Shown in pieces: positions 1,624 to 8,427 of a stretch of DNA of 8,876 bases. Source of the DNA: a virus (taxonomy: Duplodnaviria; Heunggongvirae; Uroviricota; Caudoviricetes); IMG/VR virus record IMGVR_UViG_2703718798_000006. One strand, 5' to 3'. Each line of letters opens with the position of its first letter. Within the stretch, counting starts at the first letter, position 1. A model generated the notes under the pieces. That model searched no databases, had not been told where the DNA came from, and saw nothing but the letters and a program-made list of their open reading frames with translations. The position numbers and the translations under genes are program-made.

Positions 1624-2148
1624 ATGCGGAAGTCAATTGCCGATAAAGAGTTATCTGACACACAAGCCCTTCAGGAAAACGACAGCATCACCGAATCCGT
1701 TGGCGCGGCAAACGACGATGAACACCAAGAGGAAAAGAAAAAACGCACCTACAAAAAAGGGGCAACCTTGCGACTGGATGGCCCGGTAGCCGGACTTTGC
1801 TCACTTGAAAAAGGGGCAGCCTATATCGGGTTGACAAAAGCTGCATTGCGCGTGGCGCTTCAGCGAAATCAGATGCCTGGACACAAGACCCGTTCAAACC
1901 CTGAAGATGAAAATTCGGATGGCGTGTGGTGGTTTAACGCCAGAGAGTGGGACAAGCTGGCTGACGAACTACCAGAATGCGAGCCGCCAGAATGGCACAA
2001 CTGGAAAAGCTACTGGACATACGACCGACAGAAAAGAAAGTTTTCCCCGGCAAACAAAGAAGACTGCCAGACCATCAATGGAAAGCGGGTTTACACAGGA
2101 AGAAAGTCAAAACTGGAGCAACACCAATACAGTGGAGGCAACCAGTGA
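1624..2148 (+). CDS. Cox/Apl-like excisionase or early regulator (HTH), unusually long at 174 aa
   Basis: ATG 1624 with strong SD AAGAGGA (1609-1615). Central segment LEKGAAYIGLTKAALRVALQRNQMPG...GVWWFNAREWDKL resembles the excisionase/AlpA/Cox HTH plus aromatic wing pattern. First rightward gene opposite the repressor. N-terminal ~60 aa is acidic and low-complexity. Confidence 0.5.
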   Translation: MRKSIADKELSDTQALQENDSITESVGAANDDEHQEEKKKRTYKKGATLRLDGPVAGLCSLEKGAAYIGLTKAALRVALQRNQMPGHKTRSNPEDENSDGVWWFNAREWDKLADELPECEPPEWHNWKSYWTYDRQKRKFSPANKEDCQTINGKRVYTGRKSKLEQHQYSGGNQ

Positions 2149-2169
2149 CATCAAAATAAACCGGCAACA

Positions 2170-2195
2170 GCGAAATCCCAGGAATGAGATTTCGC
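2170..2195. terminator. Perfect 8-bp hairpin (GCGAAATC / GATTTCGC, 10-nt loop) between convergent genes; possible weak or bidirectional terminator
   Basis: Lies between the cox-like stop (2148) and the minus-strand gene stop (2233). No adjacent U-tract on plus; T-rich run starts 9 nt after the hairpin on minus. Confidence 0.3.
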
Positions 2196-2232
2196 CGCAG
2201 ATGCTGTGGAAAATGGTTGTTATGCAAGCAGC

Positions 2233-2688
2233 CTACCAGGCTGATGGATGATCATCATCAATATCAAACACATTTCTGTAAAAACGAGAATGTTGCAAGG
2301 GATGAATAAGCGACCCCCAACAATCATAAATATCAGCCAGTTCGAACACATCGTATGAGAGATGTTGAGCAAACGATTCGGCACCTTCAAAAGACTCAAA
2401 CACCTCATCATACAAGTGAATGTTTTCAGGATACGAAAGTGACAAGCAAAAACCAGACGTAGATTCCGTAACCAAGAAGACAAGGTGATATTTATCATTC
2501 ACCAGTGACTGAGCACATTTTTTTACAGAGCGAAGAATCACAGGGGAACGCGCGCCAATACGAAAGAGTTCTGCATGAGCACGGGCATCAACAAAACTGT
2601 GAAACCCCTCACTTCTTGCAAGCTCACGTTCGGCAGCACGCAAAACCCAAAACCACCGCCCAGATTCGGATGTAAGGATAATTTTCAT
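2233..2688 (-). CDS. Hypothetical protein, 151 aa, antisense to the early operon
   Basis: Only long ORF across 2233..2688; plus strand has no ORF >=60 aa from 2252 to 2574. Protein-like alternating beta/alpha pattern (MKIILTSESG..., PVILRSV..., HLVFLVTE...) with acidic C-terminus. ATG at 2688 has a weak SD. Confidence 0.45.
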   Translation of the reverse strand: MKIILTSESGRWFWVLRAAERELARSEGFHSFVDARAHAELFRIGARSPVILRSVKKCAQSLVNDKYHLVFLVTESTSGFCLSLSYPENIHLYDEVFESFEGAESFAQHLSYDVFELADIYDCWGSLIHPLQHSRFYRNVFDIDDDHPSAW

Positions 2689-2952
2689 ATGAATAAAGAG
2701 AAATCTCCGGATTATTTTGTGAAACGATTACAGGATGCAACAGAGTCAATGTTGATTGCCCTGAATAATTATTCTTACGAAGAGGCCGTAACGGTACTTG
2801 AGTGGATAAAGGAAAAAATAACGGAAGACAGCATCGTCAAGATGCAGAGTATCAACATCTCCCGTGACAAAACATTTCCACTGCGAATACCGCCAAAACG
2901 ACGACTGGTTTACTCGATACCAGTCTCAATGCAGTGCAAATTGCCGAAATAG
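2689..2952 (+). CDS. Hypothetical protein, 87 aa (alternative start ATG 2575 gives 125 aa)
   Basis: ATG 2689 preceded by AAGGA (2674-2678); the ORF upstream of 2689 overlaps the minus-strand gene and encodes a proline-rich low-complexity stretch. Confidence 0.5.
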   Translation: MNKEKSPDYFVKRLQDATESMLIALNNYSYEEAVTVLEWIKEKITEDSIVKMQSINISRDKTFPLRIPPKRRLVYSIPVSMQCKLPK

Positions 2953-3104
2953 TTTATGAGAAAACATAAATACTCCTTTGTGTGGTTGGTTATCGTTACA
3001 ACAGTTCGGGCAAGAATTGCAAGGCGTAACGAAATTACTACAAAACCATGCGCCGGGCATGGCTAAAAACCCGGCACAAATTCACAGCAGCAGTAGGGAT
3101 TTTT

Positions 3105-3449
3105 ATGAAGAAACCGGGAAATTTTTCACAGCAGAATTTTCGAACAAGTGCCGAACGCCACGTTGCACGCCAGCACTTCCGCAAAAATAGTGCGACCACA
3201 ACCACTGAAATCCATGCCACACCAGACGGTCACCCGGTAAAACAAACCGGCAAGCACACCTGGGCGATTGGCGACACTGGCATCGTTATTCACAAAAGTT
3301 TTCGCAGCCCTGTTACTGGCCGATTTAATTTCACCCTGACTCGCGGGGATGATTACTTCGGACAGGACTTCACATTTTTTGAAGCCTTAAGAACGGCAGA
3401 CAGATTAATCAGCGGCCTGCGTTTTCAATATCCGGGAAGCAAGCACTGA
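3105..3449 (+). CDS. Hypothetical protein, 114 aa (ORF opens at ATG 3048)
   Basis: ATG 3105 preceded by AGGGA with 5-nt spacing; ATG 3048 has no SD. Globular-looking composition. Confidence 0.6.
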   Translation: MKKPGNFSQQNFRTSAERHVARQHFRKNSATTTTEIHATPDGHPVKQTGKHTWAIGDTGIVIHKSFRSPVTGRFNFTLTRGDDYFGQDFTFFEALRTADRLISGLRFQYPGSKH

Positions 3450-4858: not shown

Positions 4859-4941
4859 GGTGAAGCATGGTCGCCATCCTGAATGTGTGTTGCTGCCCCC
4901 CCCTGAACGTGGAAAGAAAAGCCCGCGCATCGCTGCGTTTA

Positions 4942-4966
4942 TTCCGCAACGGTGTGCGGAATTTTT
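4942..4966 (+). terminator. Rho-independent terminator: 7-bp stem TTCCGCA/TGCGGAA, 6-nt loop, T5 tail
   Basis: Perfect hairpin immediately followed by TTTTT, in the gap between the exonuclease and dam. Confidence 0.55.
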
Positions 4967-5090
4967 CACGCATAAAGCCCCACAACTACCTGGTGATAAG
5001 AATCGGTTTTCGCTGGCGATTACTCAGCAAGAACAACGGGAAGTCATGGGATTTATTAACGCATGAAACCTATAACAAAGAGGCCGCGTT

Positions 5091-6071
5091 ATGAGCAAAG
5101 AACTGTTATCCGGCACACCGCTGAAATGGGTGGGTGGCAAAAGCCGCATCATGAACACACTGAAGGTGCATCTGCCAGAAGCTGACTGCCTGGTTGAACC
5201 GTTCGTGGGTGGCGCATCGGTATTCATGAACACCAGTTACAAACGCTACATCCTGGGTGATTCCAATGGTGCGCTGATTAATTTCTGGCGGGCAGCACGG
5301 GACAACACAGACAGTCTGATCGACGAGGCGAAAACCCTGTTCCTGAACCACAACAACAGGGGTGACTATCTCATCATTCGCGAAACCTTTAACGCAGAGA
5401 ATCATGCCTTCCTGAGTAGCAGAACGGGAATAAGCGACCGCCGTGAACTGCGACTGGCCGCCATGTTTTTGTACCTCAACCGGCACTGTTTTAATGGCCT
5501 GTACCGGGTGAACGGAAAAGGCGATTTTAACGTGCCTTTCGGCTGCTACCGCAAGCCCTATTTCCCTGAGCATGAAATCCGCGCATTTGCAGACAAGGCA
5601 AACAGCACCCGAACGCTGCTTATCCACGCAGATTTTAAGGATACGCTGAACTCTGCCAGTCACCTGTTCGGCATGGGCAACACGCTTTGCGTGTACTGCG
5701 ATCCCCCTTACCTGCAATTCAGTGGCCGGGACAATTTCACCGCCTACGGAAAACCATTCGATGAACACGAGCACGTTCGCCTGAGGGCAGCACTTGACCG
5801 CCTTTCGCAGGAAACGGGCGGCATGACCAGCATCACCATCTCCAATTCCGACACACCGGAAACCAGACGCATTTATCAGGGTTACCGGATGAACTGCATA
5901 CAGGCACCACGCAGCGTTGGCGCAAGAACCCGCGAACCAGCACCGGAAGTTATCGCCACCCTGAGACAGTGCGACGCCTGCGGTCACTATGGCGGTGGCT
6001 ACTGCCCGGACTGCGGACCGGTAACGGGAGATGCAACTTACTGCGTGATGTTTACCCCTGCCAGTACGTGA
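5091..6071 (+). CDS. dam: Dam-family N6-adenine DNA methyltransferase with C-terminal Cys4 extension, 326 aa
   Basis: SD AGAGG at 7-nt spacing. N-terminal LKWVGGK and AdoMet motif FVGGASVF (res 38-45), catalytic DPPY (res 204-207). C-terminal CDACGHYGGGYCPDCG (CxxC-x7-CxxC, nt 5970..6014) not present in canonical Dam as I recall it. GATC specificity not verifiable here. Confidence 0.9.
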   Translation: MSKELLSGTPLKWVGGKSRIMNTLKVHLPEADCLVEPFVGGASVFMNTSYKRYILGDSNGALINFWRAARDNTDSLIDEAKTLFLNHNNRGDYLIIRETFNAENHAFLSSRTGISDRRELRLAAMFLYLNRHCFNGLYRVNGKGDFNVPFGCYRKPYFPEHEIRAFADKANSTRTLLIHADFKDTLNSASHLFGMGNTLCVYCDPPYLQFSGRDNFTAYGKPFDEHEHVRLRAALDRLSQETGGMTSITISNSDTPETRRIYQGYRMNCIQAPRSVGARTREPAPEVIATLRQCDACGHYGGGYCPDCGPVTGDATYCVMFTPAST

Positions 6072-6558: not shown

Positions 6559-6899
6559 TTTATATCGCCGGTCCCATGACCGGATACAAAGACGACAACA
6601 GACTGGAGTTTTGCCTGGCGGACCTGAAGCTTAGGTACGCCGGAAACATTGTTCTTAATCCTGCCGTACTGCCTGACGGATTAAGCCAGCAGCAGTACAT
6701 GAGCATTTGTATTCCGATGCTCATGTGTGCCGATGCCATTTACTTACTGGATGGATGGGAAGAGTCCGCTGGCGCACGGGCTGAGTACGCAATGGCACTC
6801 AAGCTGAACATGCCGGTGTCATTCCCGGAAAATCGGGCGGCCGGCGAAACTGTCGCACAGCTGCTTGGCAAATCAAAAGCCGCACAGGCGACTGAGTAA
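6549..6899 (+). CDS. Nucleoside 2-deoxyribosyltransferase-like (DUF4406-type) protein, 116 aa
   Basis: SD GGGAGG upstream. N-terminal VIYIAGPMTG and later ...DAIYLLDGWEESAGARAEYAMA... match the motif pattern I associate with the NDT-like/DUF4406 fold. Confidence 0.65.
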   Translation: MAVIYIAGPMTGYKDDNRLEFCLADLKLRYAGNIVLNPAVLPDGLSQQQYMSICIPMLMCADAIYLLDGWEESAGARAEYAMALKLNMPVSFPENRAAGETVAQLLGKSKAAQATE

Positions 6900-7337
6900 C
6901 CGACCGGAGATCGAAACATGATTGCGCGAAGAGCTGCCAACCGCCTCACAGGCTTTATTCCAGGCAAGATTAATCATGCACTCCATGATGGGACTGTCAC
7001 TTTCCTCAACAAAGGAGAGGCGCGCAATCATGCATTCCTTACTAATCACATGGCGCTGACTGATAAGGCGCTGGTAACTGACTGCCTGCCATTCAGCCTT
7101 TTCAGCCCTGCGTTCAAAACTGGCAGCCATGCACTGCCAAAGCAGAAACAGAACCACACTGAAGAGTACCAACACAACAAAATCACACAGGACAAACGCC
7201 GCAACACCAACCAGAAAGGCGCTGATTCGCAGAGCAGCAGAAACGCGTCGGTGAAACACACATGTAATACGTTCAAGCCAGTAGCTGTACCACAGGTCAA
7301 AAAGAATGTCGTAATCAGAAGGGAGCTTATCACTCAT
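6873..7337 (-). CDS. Hypothetical two-TM membrane protein, 154 aa, antisense to the early operon (alternative start ATG 7397)
   Basis: Internal ATG (7337) of minus ORF 6873..7673. Two adjacent hydrophobic helices (ISAFLVGVAAFVLC-D-FVVLVLFSVVLFLLW) flanked by basic residues. The overlapping plus ORF 6918..8030 is low-complexity and runs through two terminators. Weak SD (GGGG 10 nt upstream). Confidence 0.4.
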   Translation of the reverse strand: MSDKLPSDYDILFDLWYSYWLERITCVFHRRVSAALRISAFLVGVAAFVLCDFVVLVLFSVVLFLLWQCMAASFERRAEKAEWQAVSYQRLISQRHVISKECMIARLSFVEESDSPIMECMINLAWNKACEAVGSSSRNHVSISGRLLSRLCGF

Positions 7338-7500
7338 CAGAAACACCCCGCGTATGCAGACAATCACCAGTTGCCAGGTGATATTAATTCGCCACATTCT
7401 AACCACATCAGCACGCAACACAAAAACCGCTTGCCAGCGTTCGCCTGGTCGGGTTACAGTTTTCCCGCACCTCATAAAACGGGTGCCGGGATTGCAACCC

Positions 7501-7542
7501 CCGCTGACTACACAAGCGCACAACCGCGCCAGCGGTTTTTTT
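7501..7542 (+). terminator. Strong Rho-independent terminator T1: stem CCGCTG/CAGCGG with internal GCGC/GCGC sub-stem, then T7
   Basis: 6-bp GC-rich outer stem (7501-7506 / 7530-7535) directly followed by TTTTTTT (7536-7542); 4-bp inner stem 7516-7519 / 7526-7529. Confidence 0.6.
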
Positions 7543-7582
7543 GTGCGTACCGCATCGTCACATCTTTTTCGCGTCAGAATTA

Positions 7583-7660
7583 TGGTGGGGCGTACAGGGC
7601 CGACTTCGGTCGGGCCGGGGTCTTGTGTAGCCGGTGGTTGCAACCCTGTACGTCTCACCA
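7583..7660 (+). ncRNA. Candidate structured RNA (sRNA or cis-acting leader/antiterminator) in the 17-bp stem fold
   Basis: 7583-7599 pairs with 7644-7660 over 17 bp including two G-U wobbles (7590-7653, 7588-7655), which are valid only in plus-strand RNA. Enclosed hairpin 7600-7604/7609-7613 has loop TTCG with C-G closing pair (cUUCGg). ORF-free region. Confidence 0.45.
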
Positions 7661-7692
7661 CCCAGAATTGCAACCTCTGGATGGTGAGTTTT
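7654..7692 (+). terminator. Putative intrinsic terminator T2: 7-bp + 5-bp stem (one mismatch), 9-nt loop, T4 tail; mutually exclusive with the 17-bp stem
   Basis: CTCACCA(7654-7660)/TGGTGAG(7682-7688) and CCAGA(7662-7666)/TCTGG(7676-7680), followed by TTTT (7689-7692). The 5' arm is also the 3' arm of the long stem at 7583-7660. Confidence 0.45.
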
Positions 7693-7720
7693 CAAAACTT
7701 ACTACACAAGAGGCCACACC

Positions 7721-7948
7721 ATGGCAAACCGCAAGCAACAGCGCGCCCGCGCTGAGCGTCTTCACATCCACACCGAAATCAACCGCAGACTCCATCGGGC
7801 TGCATCTGTCTCCTTCATCATGCAGTCAAACGTATTACACCGACTTAACGACGGTATCGCTGCCGGGTATTACGCGGCAGTCTTCAGCTATCTGGCCGAA
7901 GACCTGGCAGAACTGCAGGACCTTATCAACCAGCAACACCACCACTAA
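7721..7948 (+). CDS. Hypothetical small basic/helical protein, 75 aa, ending HHH
   Basis: ATG 7721 preceded by AAGAGG (7708-7713) at 7-nt spacing; first gene after the structured leader. Confidence 0.6.
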   Translation: MANRKQQRARAERLHIHTEINRRLHRAASVSFIMQSNVLHRLNDGIAAGYYAAVFSYLAEDLAELQDLINQQHHH

Positions 7949-8016
7949 ACAACATCCTGAAGCCATCCCGCACCCGTGCGCGGGAGGCTTCCGCACGTCT
8001 GTTACCGGAGGTTCTC

Positions 8017-8427
8017 ATGAAGAGCGTTAAGGGACTTTCAGATATTCAGGATTTTTTTAACTGGATGTGGGCAGTGGATCCCCGGCTGGCTTCCCGCCTG
8101 AACGACTGGCACGACTATTACCGCCGCGCCTGTAAACAGGCCGCCAGACACGTCACCACATACGGGGATTTCTCCTTCACCGTTGACGACCGTTACCGCG
8201 TGGACGTGAAAGGTGATGGTTTTGGTTTATTTCACATCAACGGAACCGACAGCACCGCCATCAGTTGGTCGTCGTCAGAGATGACGCTTGTTCTGGAAAT
8301 GACAACGCACAGCGTGGCCGTGAAAGGCATATACACCGCAGAAGACTTTATCGGTGAATATCAGCGCCTTCTCGTGCTGTACCGCGCGGCGTTTCAGGCG
8401 GCGACTGCCGGGGAGTGCGACGCATGA
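8017..8427 (+). CDS. Hypothetical protein, 136 aa
   Basis: ATG 8017 preceded by GGAGG (8007-8011); stop overlaps the next start (ATGA 8424-8427). Confidence 0.65.
   Translation: MKSVKGLSDIQDFFNWMWAVDPRLASRLNDWHDYYRRACKQAARHVTTYGDFSFTVDDRYRVDVKGDGFGLFHINGTDSTAISWSSSEMTLVLEMTTHSVAVKGIYTAEDFIGEYQRLLVLYRAAFQAATAGECDA

Follow-up and report, generated by a model that had tools for sequence, protein, structure and literature searches.

Genes and features of the locus

The sequence analyzed here is an 8,876-nt stretch of DNA from a virus of the class Caudoviricetes (IMG/VR record IMGVR_UViG_2703718798_000006), referred to below as the window, which means the whole stretch at its full length. It represents the immunity and early region of a P2-like Escherichia coli prophage integrated beside dmsA. 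The subject of the analysis is a minus-strand open reading frame (ORF) of 151 codons, named orf151, together with an 87-codon gene, orf87, with which it is arranged head-to-head, and a conserved module of about 110 nt just beyond orf87, named element X. Both genes are situated between a Cox-family gene (cox) and a DUF4761 gene of the rightward early operon. As the initial annotation had stated, orf151 is convergent with cox, and a perfect 8-bp hairpin (GCGAAATC/GATTTCGC) lies between the two; all these sequence facts were confirmed. The coordinates of the features are collected in Table 1.

Table 1. Positions of the orf151/orf87 pair, element X and neighbouring features in the window (SD, Shine-Dalgarno sequence; HTH, helix-turn-helix)
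Feature	Position	Strand	Description
orf151	2233-2688	-	151 aa, ATG start; predicted tandem DUF1508/UPF0339 (YegP-like) fold and conserved acidic C-terminal tail
orf87	2689-2952	+	87 aa, co-directional with early operon; conserved N-terminal part and basic C-terminal tail FPLRIPPKRRLVY
CATATG	2686-2691		Abutting starts of orf151 (-) and orf87 (+); zero intergenic bases
Element X	2965-3077	-	About 110 nt, promoter/leader-like; conserved across lineages
X hairpin T1	3052-3057, 3070-3075	-	GCCGGG (3070-3075) with CCCGGC (3052-3057); inner stem CCATGC/GCATGG ending at 3046; then TTT
X motif	3032-3042	-	TGTAGTAATTT; TGnTAnnnT in relatives; hexamer TAATTT at 3032-3037
X stem 2	2994-3000, 3025-3031	-	Covarying; followed by a CA-rich spacer
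X SD	2973-2978	-	AAGGAG
X ATG	2965-2967	-	
Upstream ORF	2926-2967	-	13 aa, MFSHKLFRQFALH; opens at SD-ATG of X, ends within the 3' end of orf87, antisense
3' stem-loop	2167-2198	-	After orf151 stop; candidate terminator or 3'-end stabiliser of leftward mRNA
Stretch without counterpart in sister prophages	2165-3150		Cassette and divergent allele of DUF4761 5' region; from blastn and GC content
Integrase	117-1124	leftward	
C-type HTH repressor		leftward	
Cox-family regulator	1624-2148	+	174 aa; starts rightward early operon; context, outside cassette
DUF4761 gene	3105-3449	+	First early-operon gene right of cassette; Pfam DUF4761 E 2.8e-30; coordinates from the Prokaryotic Genome Annotation Pipeline (PGAP) via locus L001; context

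orf151 is a real gene with a conserved N-terminus

orf151 is a real gene, beyond a chance ORF. The ratio of nonsynonymous to synonymous substitution (dN/dS) between diverged lineages was 0.16-0.44 with saturated dS, indicating purifying selection, and the product matched a single PHROG family, 28512, whose function is unassigned (E 1.7e-94). In exhaustive searches, members of this small family turned up only in prophages of Enterobacterales, namely those of E. coli, Salmonella, Klebsiella, Yersinia, Trabulsiella and Citrobacter; a tblastn comparison with 50,697 phage records gave no match for orf151, and sequence searches with orf151 and orf87 in Pfam, NCBIfam, PADLOC and PDB gave nothing significant.

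The ATG abutting orf87 is the true start of orf151, since residues 1-15 (MKIIL.SES..W.W) are conserved even at 38% identity, codon 16 is TTA, which is not a start codon, in Salmonella, and, of eight loci examined, five (the window, Yersinia and three Salmonella loci of a single type) offer no alternative start further upstream. PGAP used the TTG of codon 16 (position 2643) in one strain, STEC17-183, giving a 136-aa form (L001 4134-4544) as opposed to the 151-aa ATG form in strain G1/2; PHROG 28512 likewise models the 136-aa form.

The orf151 product is predicted to adopt a tandem DUF1508 fold

An AlphaFold2 model built on an eight-sequence alignment reached a predicted local distance difference test score (pLDDT) of 87 and a predicted template modelling score (pTM) of 0.81 and consisted of two beta-beta-beta-alpha units with a C-terminal extension; a run with five sequences had given pLDDT 61. 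Units of this kind, of about 50 residues each and joined as a tandem pseudo-dimer, make up the DUF1508/UPF0339 fold, and the orf151 protein is accordingly predicted to be a divergent tandem member of it (YegP-like). Sequence comparison gave weak signals in the same direction. Pfam PF07411 (DUF1508) scored 13.3 bits versus a 22-bit cut-off (E 0.078, residues 8-31 only), the same profile matched only one of eight orf151-family members, and hhalign against DUF1508 gave E 7e-4 at a probability of merely 27%. A phmmer search of 1.84 billion proteins aligned orf151 in five stretches to a protein carrying nine Pfam DUF1508 domains (E 5e-4).

Compared with the described UPF0339/DUF1508 proteins (Shewanella SO_3888, PDB 2k49; E. 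coli YegP, PDB 2k8e), the orf151 protein differs in three respects: its sequence stays under the Pfam threshold, its family is confined to the early regions of Enterobacterales P2-like prophages, and it adds a conserved acidic tail of about 35 residues ending in DDHPS (HPLQHSRxYRxMFDIxDDHPS), of which the final motif is retained even in the most distant branch. The protein is acidic (isoelectric point, pI, 5.1-6.3). Papers on YegP/DUF1508 describe stress induction and an association with DNA-damage-regulated immune operons, and for tandem DUF1508 a Whirly/PC4-like topology binding single-stranded DNA has been suggested computationally. PADLOC-DB 2.0 gave no match for orf151 or orf87 at E values up to 1. 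The initial annotation had been unable to name a family; structure prediction added a confident YegP-like tandem fold, and no characterised functional family is assignable to orf151.

orf151 and orf87 form an invariant head-to-head pair

At every locus of the main orf151 branch, the gene stands head-to-head with a gene of 86-88 aa, the two starts exactly abutting. Such pairs were found in at least six diverged lineages (seven if the Salmonella loci L004 and L013 are counted separately), namely in E. coli (the window and L023), Salmonella type 1 (L004, L013-L017 and L024), Salmonella type 2 (L022), Yersinia (L007), Klebsiella (L009-L011 and L025) and Trabulsiella (L012). The abutting ATGs reported for the window are no peculiarity of it: the CATATG was invariant at all paired loci (L004, L005, L006, L007, L009-L013 and L022-L025) and thus in six diverged lineages. 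The place of the pair in the early operon varies, from right after cox to one to four genes further on, and the orientation is constant, with the 87-aa gene co-directional with the operon and orf151 antisense to it.

orf87 is also under purifying selection (dN/dS 0.09-0.26 between diverged lineages). An in-frame plus-strand extension of orf87 from position 2575 is present in the window; in all other lineages it is closed by stop codons 4-8 codons upstream, and therefore the start of orf87 is the ATG at 2689, in agreement with the lack of any alternative upstream start in all seven loci other than the window. Its SD, TAAGGA, lies at 2673-2678, 10 nt before the ATG. Since the SD of each gene falls within the first codons of the other, each mRNA must carry the complement of the ribosome-binding site of the other. 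The N-terminal part of the orf87 protein appears helical, judged by eye from its sequence, and the basic tail of the family reads FPLRIPPKRRL(V/I)Y (C-terminal pI about 11); the tails of the two proteins are thus oppositely charged. No Pfam, PHROG, NCBIfam or PADLOC family was found for orf87. The orf87 family is as rare as that of orf151 (a search with the orf87 alignment recovered only one species-representative genome and three IMG/VR loci), and an orf151-family gene, intact or truncated, adjoins it at every locus examined. From this co-occurrence and the opposite tail charges one may speculate that the orf87 protein acts on the orf151 protein or on its target.

Two Salmonella loci carry a shortened form of the pair. 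In L005 (468-818) and L006 (909-1259) the orf151 homologue is cut to 116 aa, with the C-terminal tail lost and a 93-aa gene following directly, and the 87-aa partner is intact and still abuts it.

The orf151-family gene beside every orf87 homologue examined, the shared narrow taxonomic range of the two families, the opposite tail charges and the compact mobile arrangement would also suit a toxin-antitoxin-like or abortive-infection pair, in which one protein inhibits growth and the other neutralises it. We regard such a pair as quite improbable, because the genes are divergent and not co-transcribed, which is atypical for toxin-antitoxin modules, because orf151-family members without the partner occur in E. 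coli and Citrobacter and a truncated orf151 stands beside an intact orf87 in Salmonella, and because no toxin or antitoxin signal was obtained from PADLOC, Pfam or NCBIfam. The opposite extreme, that orf151 no longer functions or is in decay and that the starts abut by accident, could appeal to the inconsistent PGAP start, the rarity of the cassette described below, a substitution in the X motif of the window and the truncated Salmonella form; it is already contradicted by full-length conservation down to 38% identity, by the dN/dS of 0.16-0.44 at saturated dS, by the confident compact fold and by the invariance of CATATG in six diverged lineages, and it is hardly credible.

The pair is a swappable accessory cassette

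Two sister prophages at the same chromosomal site, L002 and L003, were compared with the window by blastn. Homology ended at 2164 and restarted at 3151, with flanks in L002 that were 99.8% identical up to 2164 and 94.7% identical from 3151, and in place of 2165-3150 the sister prophages had 292 bp with an unrelated 64-aa plus-strand ORF. The guanine-cytosine (GC) content of 2165-3150 is 0.40-0.44 versus 0.49-0.52 in the flanks, and positions 3032-3134 match the region upstream of DUF4761 in other prophages. A third content was found at the same site in E. coli A36 and STEC316, consisting of a 117-aa plus-strand gene and a 155-aa minus-strand gene, so that at least three alternative contents of the site exist. 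The 64-aa and 117-aa ORFs of these alternative cassettes showed no kinship with orf87. Among 5426 complete E. coli genomes, the orf151 cassette occurred in six. The orf151/orf87 pair is thus a mobile, swappable accessory cassette of about 900 bp and low GC content, present in one and absent from the other of near-identical phages and atypical in composition, as morons are. The variability that the initial annotation had envisaged among related prophages is therefore borne out, with replaced content between flanks of 99.8% and about 95% identity. Its suggestion of an accessory gene holds in the sense that the gene behaves as a cassette; a role in defence, anti-defence or conversion is a candidate only, and PADLOC gave no match.

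The 155-aa E. coli protein, orf155, is a distant full-length homologue of orf151 (hhalign probability 94.6%, E 6.6e-8; its end reads D.HPS), which lies antisense in the early operon without an 87-aa partner. The Citrobacter P0024 branch likewise has an antisense, partner-less relative of orf151. Partner-less homologues lie at L018, L019, L020 and L044.

Element X is a conserved module beyond orf87

A gap of 120-185 nt constantly follows orf87, and it holds element X, which is conserved among lineages whose synonymous sites are saturated. Read on the minus strand, X comprises hairpin T1, a TG-containing motif with a TAnnnT hexamer, stem 2, a spacer, an SD and an ATG (Table 1). In all of the about 40 sequences examined, T1, A2 and T6 of the hexamer were invariant. 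These are the positions that matter most in a -10 element. A TG at -15/-14 (TGTGGTAnnnT) was present in all X sequences except L020 (TGTGATAAC) and the allele shared by the window and STEC17-183, and X has no -35 element; the T1 hairpin also resembles an operator overlapping the -35 region. Covariation of the stems was supported by 96.6% of paired cells versus 90.3% in shuffled alignments and by 21 cells changed on both sides versus 8.1 in shuffles, with 0 of 500 shuffles as high, and slid controls paired in just 25-53%. An Rfam E-value scan of the whole window returned only C4 and isrK (7467-7665) and nothing at X (2965-3077).

At position 3039, the window and STEC17-183 carry a plus-strand T (A in the minus-strand motif), and G1/2 and the IMG/VR copies carry TGTGG, as do all remaining type-1 X sequences apart from L020. 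This change is one of only four differences from G1/2 across the 986-bp cassette.

The SD and ATG of X were found in all seven paired loci tested (six diverged lineages), where they open peptides of 13-22 aa, and at the partner-less loci L018, L019, L020 and L044 the orf151-family gene itself begins at the equivalent ATG. That such a start of translation is conserved on the minus strand, to the right of orf87, speaks for a leftward transcript across this region.

Element X marks an antisense slot for diverse cargo

A search of IMG/VR with a T1 pattern (CCATGCCCGGCGCATGGYTTTKT) yielded 38 contigs of P2-like size. In 38 of 38, X shared its strand with int and C and was located between C/cox and DUF4761/Dam, which places it within the early operon in antisense orientation. 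The cargo behind its SD-ATG comprises more than ten unrelated small ORFs, ranging overall from 27 to 161 aa (60, 71, 78, 95, 147, 151-158 and 155-161 aa, the last with two transmembrane (TM) helices, and peptides of 27-29 aa). None of these cargos had a significant Pfam or PADLOC match, and ten cargos other than the pair gave only chance-level PADLOC hits (E >=0.005). X is present in 82 of 5426 complete E. coli genomes, unannotated throughout. Among isolated phages it occurs in SEN4/5 and three Yersinia phages, and it is absent from P2, 186, Fels-2 and similar well-studied records. In SEN5 it adjoins a leftward 60-aa gene, SEN5_34, which is the cargo of the slot. These observations show that X marks an antisense accessory-gene slot of P2-like (Peduoviridae) prophages which had previously not been described.

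Several further features of these loci were recorded. A 38-aa plus-strand "hypothetical protein" is annotated exactly over X in SEN5 (SEN5_35, L065 2447-2563) and is probably a spurious call. In seven IMG/VR contigs (L036, L041, L048, L051, L054, L057 and L059), the ATG of X opens a conserved peptide of 23-29 aa that is followed by a protein with two TM helices; the peptide has 23 aa and begins MSRSVGAHRPNKP in L041, and it has 27-29 aa, begins MSDTDKFHVPRKP and ends in the acidic DEED in L048, L051 and L059. It may be a leader peptide or one half of a two-gene cargo. To the right of the slot, Yersinia (L007 4631-4912), Trabulsiella (L012 4412-4693) and SEN5 (L065 2581-2862) have a Cox-like gene, which in the latter two is immediately divergent from X. 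The gene after the repressor is a different one, of 158-171 aa, in Trabulsiella and SEN5 and a doubtful 68-aa call in Yersinia (L007 6353-6559).

Accessory hotspots known for P2-like prophages are old/tin between gpA and the portal gene, Z/fun among the tail genes, and tail-CI (PMC9122126, Rousset 2022; iLund4u preprint 10.1101/2024.10.15.618418; PMC13586616). The X slot, from C/cox to DUF4761/Dam, is neither at the gpA-portal interval nor among the tail genes; it falls inside the integrase-primase interval, a minor hotspot with 8% of P2 defence systems (PMC13586616). No account of X or of an antisense slot was found in the papers on P2 hotspots that were consulted, and a word search of PMC13586616 for "antisense" and "opposite strand" found neither. 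Like these hotspots, the X slot is a fixed site between conserved genes at which near-identical prophages exchange mostly uncharacterised cargo. Unlike them, it lies inside the early lytic operon, is oriented against it and is marked by an element of about 110 nt, and each cargo is one small ORF (27-161 aa), none of them giving a match of the DefenseFinder or PADLOC type.

Signals around the pair suggest long overlapping transcripts

The stem-loop after the orf151 stop codon (inverted-repeat arms 2170-2180 and 2185-2195) folds as minus-strand RNA into a 14-bp stem with G-U pairs (-24.4 kcal/mol, z -2.9, 0 of 200 shuffles as stable), and is weaker as plus-strand RNA (z -0.84). It has no canonical U-tract. 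A non-homologous hairpin stands at the same place in every lineage. Neither this hairpin nor the X motif passes canonical terminator or promoter consensus scans.

Consensus and position weight matrix scans of both strands in six to eight lineages revealed no conserved sigma-70-like site near the junction of orf151 and orf87, and no terminator-like site on the plus strand was found between cox and orf87. With no space left for a separate orf87 promoter and no terminator-like site after cox, orf87 is probably transcribed from the early promoter that precedes cox. The initial annotation had reasoned that, with no intergenic space, at least one promoter must lie inside the coding sequence of the other gene. 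This is not supported: there is no conserved site at the junction, X lies beyond orf87, and the early promoter can serve orf87. With X beyond orf87 and no terminator-like site after cox, each transcript likely crosses the whole of the other gene, and no embedded promoter is needed.

If, in extension of that reasoning, a promoter lay in each gene, the two would face each other within the first approximately 100 nt of the genes and give short transcripts overlapping at their 5' ends, as in IS10, with X unrelated to orf151 expression. The zero intergenic bases fit that geometry, third-codon-position identity is slightly raised in orf87 codons 1-10 (0.55 versus about 0.40 in a synonymous-site scan, a slight rise only), and the best minus-strand candidate of the window, TTGCAT-N18-AATAAT, whose end is 22 nt upstream of the orf151 ATG, scores at the 95th percentile of the background. 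The latter site is, however, unconserved, other lineages scoring 4.7-5.4 there, near the background median of 4.2, no conserved plus-strand candidate was found inside orf151, and the consensus scan of the junction was empty. Promoters at the junction would also leave unexplained why X with its SD and ATG is kept beside the pair in every lineage, and why in the partner-less relatives it directly heads the homologous gene. We consider face-to-face promoters unlikely.

A model for the expression of orf151 and orf87

X may act as a promoter-leader in which TGnTAnnnT would serve as an extended -10-like element, leftward transcription of orf151 starting from about position 3025. The orf151 mRNA would then carry, ahead of its coding sequence, the short upstream ORF and a leader that spans orf87 entirely in antisense, and its 3' end would be the stem-loop at 2167-2198. 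orf87 would be reached only by the rightward early transcript, which would be antisense to all of orf151. Such total mutual antisense overlap predicts that expression of the two genes is mutually exclusive. During lysogeny, with the early promoter repressed, orf151 would be made and orf87 would be off; upon induction, early transcription would yield orf87 and shut orf151 down through collision and RNA duplex formation. The orf151 protein would most likely be an accessory factor of the lysogenic phase, which excludes other phages or modulates the host, and the orf87 protein its lytic-phase partner or antagonist. Taken as a whole, that is, a real gene in a two-gene cassette within an antisense slot defined by X, with orf151 driven by X and orf87 read from the early transcript, we judge the model to have about an even chance of being right.

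A bolder form of it would make X the portable, regulated promoter-leader of an unrecognised hotspot of single-gene cargos (for exclusion, defence or anti-defence) expressed in lysogeny, and orf151/orf87 an antisense toggle in which a YegP-like effector is silenced at the RNA level and, in addition, neutralised as a protein by its 87-aa partner on induction. We put this forward tentatively, as a possibility rather than an expectation.

X could instead be a regulated leftward promoter of the lysis-lysogeny decision, like pE of phage 186 or PRE of lambda, from which transcription crosses the early genes in antisense and continues into C and int. Its role would then be mainly regulatory, controlling cox and the early genes by antisense and boosting C and int, with the cargo, orf151 included, carried along. 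Leftward establishment promoters inside early regions are established for both of these phages. Without exception, X shares the strand of C and int and is found to their right, within the early region; its -10-like motif lacks a -35 and has a near-palindrome, CCATGC-CCGGC-GCATGG, over -37 to -21 (counted by hand), which fits a factor-dependent promoter; and in SEN5 and Trabulsiella it is immediately divergent from the Cox-like gene. On the other hand, a stable hairpin follows every cargo before the next gene, the cargos are diverse protein-coding genes behind a conserved SD-ATG, with orf151 under purifying selection, and the distance from X to C varies widely along with the content in between. 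In the window, about 1 kb separates orf151 from C and includes the antisense of the whole 174-aa gene. A promoter of X dedicated to C and int thus appears improbable to us.

Several points weigh against the model of X-driven orf151 and early-transcript orf87. With respect to the promoter, it is conservation by itself that suggests this reading of TGnTAnnnT, and the window allele has A for the near-invariant G of the TG, so that this copy may be poorly expressed as a promoter-down variant. A start about 7 nt past the hexamer would lie in the 5' arm of stem 2, so that one must assume an RNA stem shorter than the inverted repeat of the DNA, or else a motif other than a -10 element. A G-U asymmetry test for the strand of stem 2 found the sense of X to be more stable in 16 of 35 sequences, and T1 followed by TTTT also resembles a leftward terminator, although one of no obvious use there. 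With respect to translation, the SD of orf151 in the window (GGAG) is 16 nt upstream of the ATG and suboptimal, as compared with 5-8 nt in four of five other lineages (it is not clear in L022), and at least 200 nt between the upstream ORF and orf151 would be untranslated, where Rho might terminate the transcript. With respect to function, the truncated orf151 beside an intact orf87 in some Salmonella indicates that orf87 is not strictly dependent on an intact partner, and neither orf151 nor orf87 nor any other cargo has a defence-family match, DUF1508 itself being without known function.

Relation to known arrangements

Morons of lambdoid phages are reportedly (Hendrix and colleagues) autonomous units of promoter, gene and terminator. 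The cassette resembles them in its presence/absence polymorphism and lower GC content, in its putative own promoter and downstream stem-loop, and in a likely operon-independent expression. It differs in that X is a fixed backbone signal behind which the cargo is exchanged, in that the unit is antisense to an essential operon, and in that the leader of the orf151 cargo contains a further gene, encoded on the other strand.

The divergent genes, whose transcripts would each run antisense over the other gene, one of them from a strong lytic promoter, recall the excludon, said to have been described in Listeria by Sesto et al. in 2013, and the interference between the convergent promoters pR and pL of phage 186, reportedly shown by Callen et al. 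in 2004. Unlike in these cases, the overlap predicted here from the sequence geometry is total, because the starts abut. As in the IS10 pair RNA-IN/RNA-OUT, each mRNA would have its ribosome-binding site matched by complementary sequence in the 5' portion of the other; unlike there, both partners encode proteins, and the likely promoters are hundreds of nt away from the overlap.

Neighbouring genes in the window

The 174-aa Cox-family gene matched Pfam Phage_Cox at E 1.4e-5 (25.3 bits, slightly below the 27.5-bit cut-off) and PHROG 23196, a transcriptional regulator, at E 1e-120, and PGAP labels its homologues "Cox family DNA-binding protein". It is followed rightward by genes for DUF4761, DUF4754, a 3'-5' exonuclease, a ParE-like protein and Dam methylase. 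The ParE-like protein (4867-5094, plus strand, 75 aa, similar to ParE-family toxins in RefSeq) lies between the exonuclease and Dam genes and has no obvious adjacent antitoxin.

Further to the right, two Rfam families scored above their gathering scores, isrK (59.6 bits, 7467-7542, plus strand) and C4 antisense RNA (78 bits, 7578-7665, plus strand), which suggests an antisense-RNA immunity or antirepressor module of P1/P7 or Gifsy type within this P2-like prophage; of the ORFs listed, the long ones across 6918-8030 are probably spurious calls. Just left of this region, the minus strand carries a gene of 155 codons (6873-7340) with two predicted TM helices, whose product is 34% identical (E 2e-25) to the 155-161-aa cargo of the X slot in L036 and L048, and upstream of which TGTGGTTAGAAT (about 7403-7414, minus strand) resembles the X motif. 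The description of orf151 as an antisense gene embedded in a co-directional early operon is thus correct, except that it is not the only such gene in the window.

Implications

P2-like prophages are a proven reservoir of anti-phage genes that has been mined only at old/tin, Z/fun and tail-CI, and the X slot adds another site. As a signal that is simple to search for, X could lead to new factors of phage-phage or phage-host interplay, given more than ten cargo families that are all uncharacterised. orf151 and orf87 offer an unusually clean natural case of two protein genes that are probably mutually exclusive through total antisense overlap, and through the pair the widespread YegP/DUF1508 fold gains a link to a phage setting, where one can look for a phenotype. 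If the toggle described above proved true, it would give the first functional handle on this fold.

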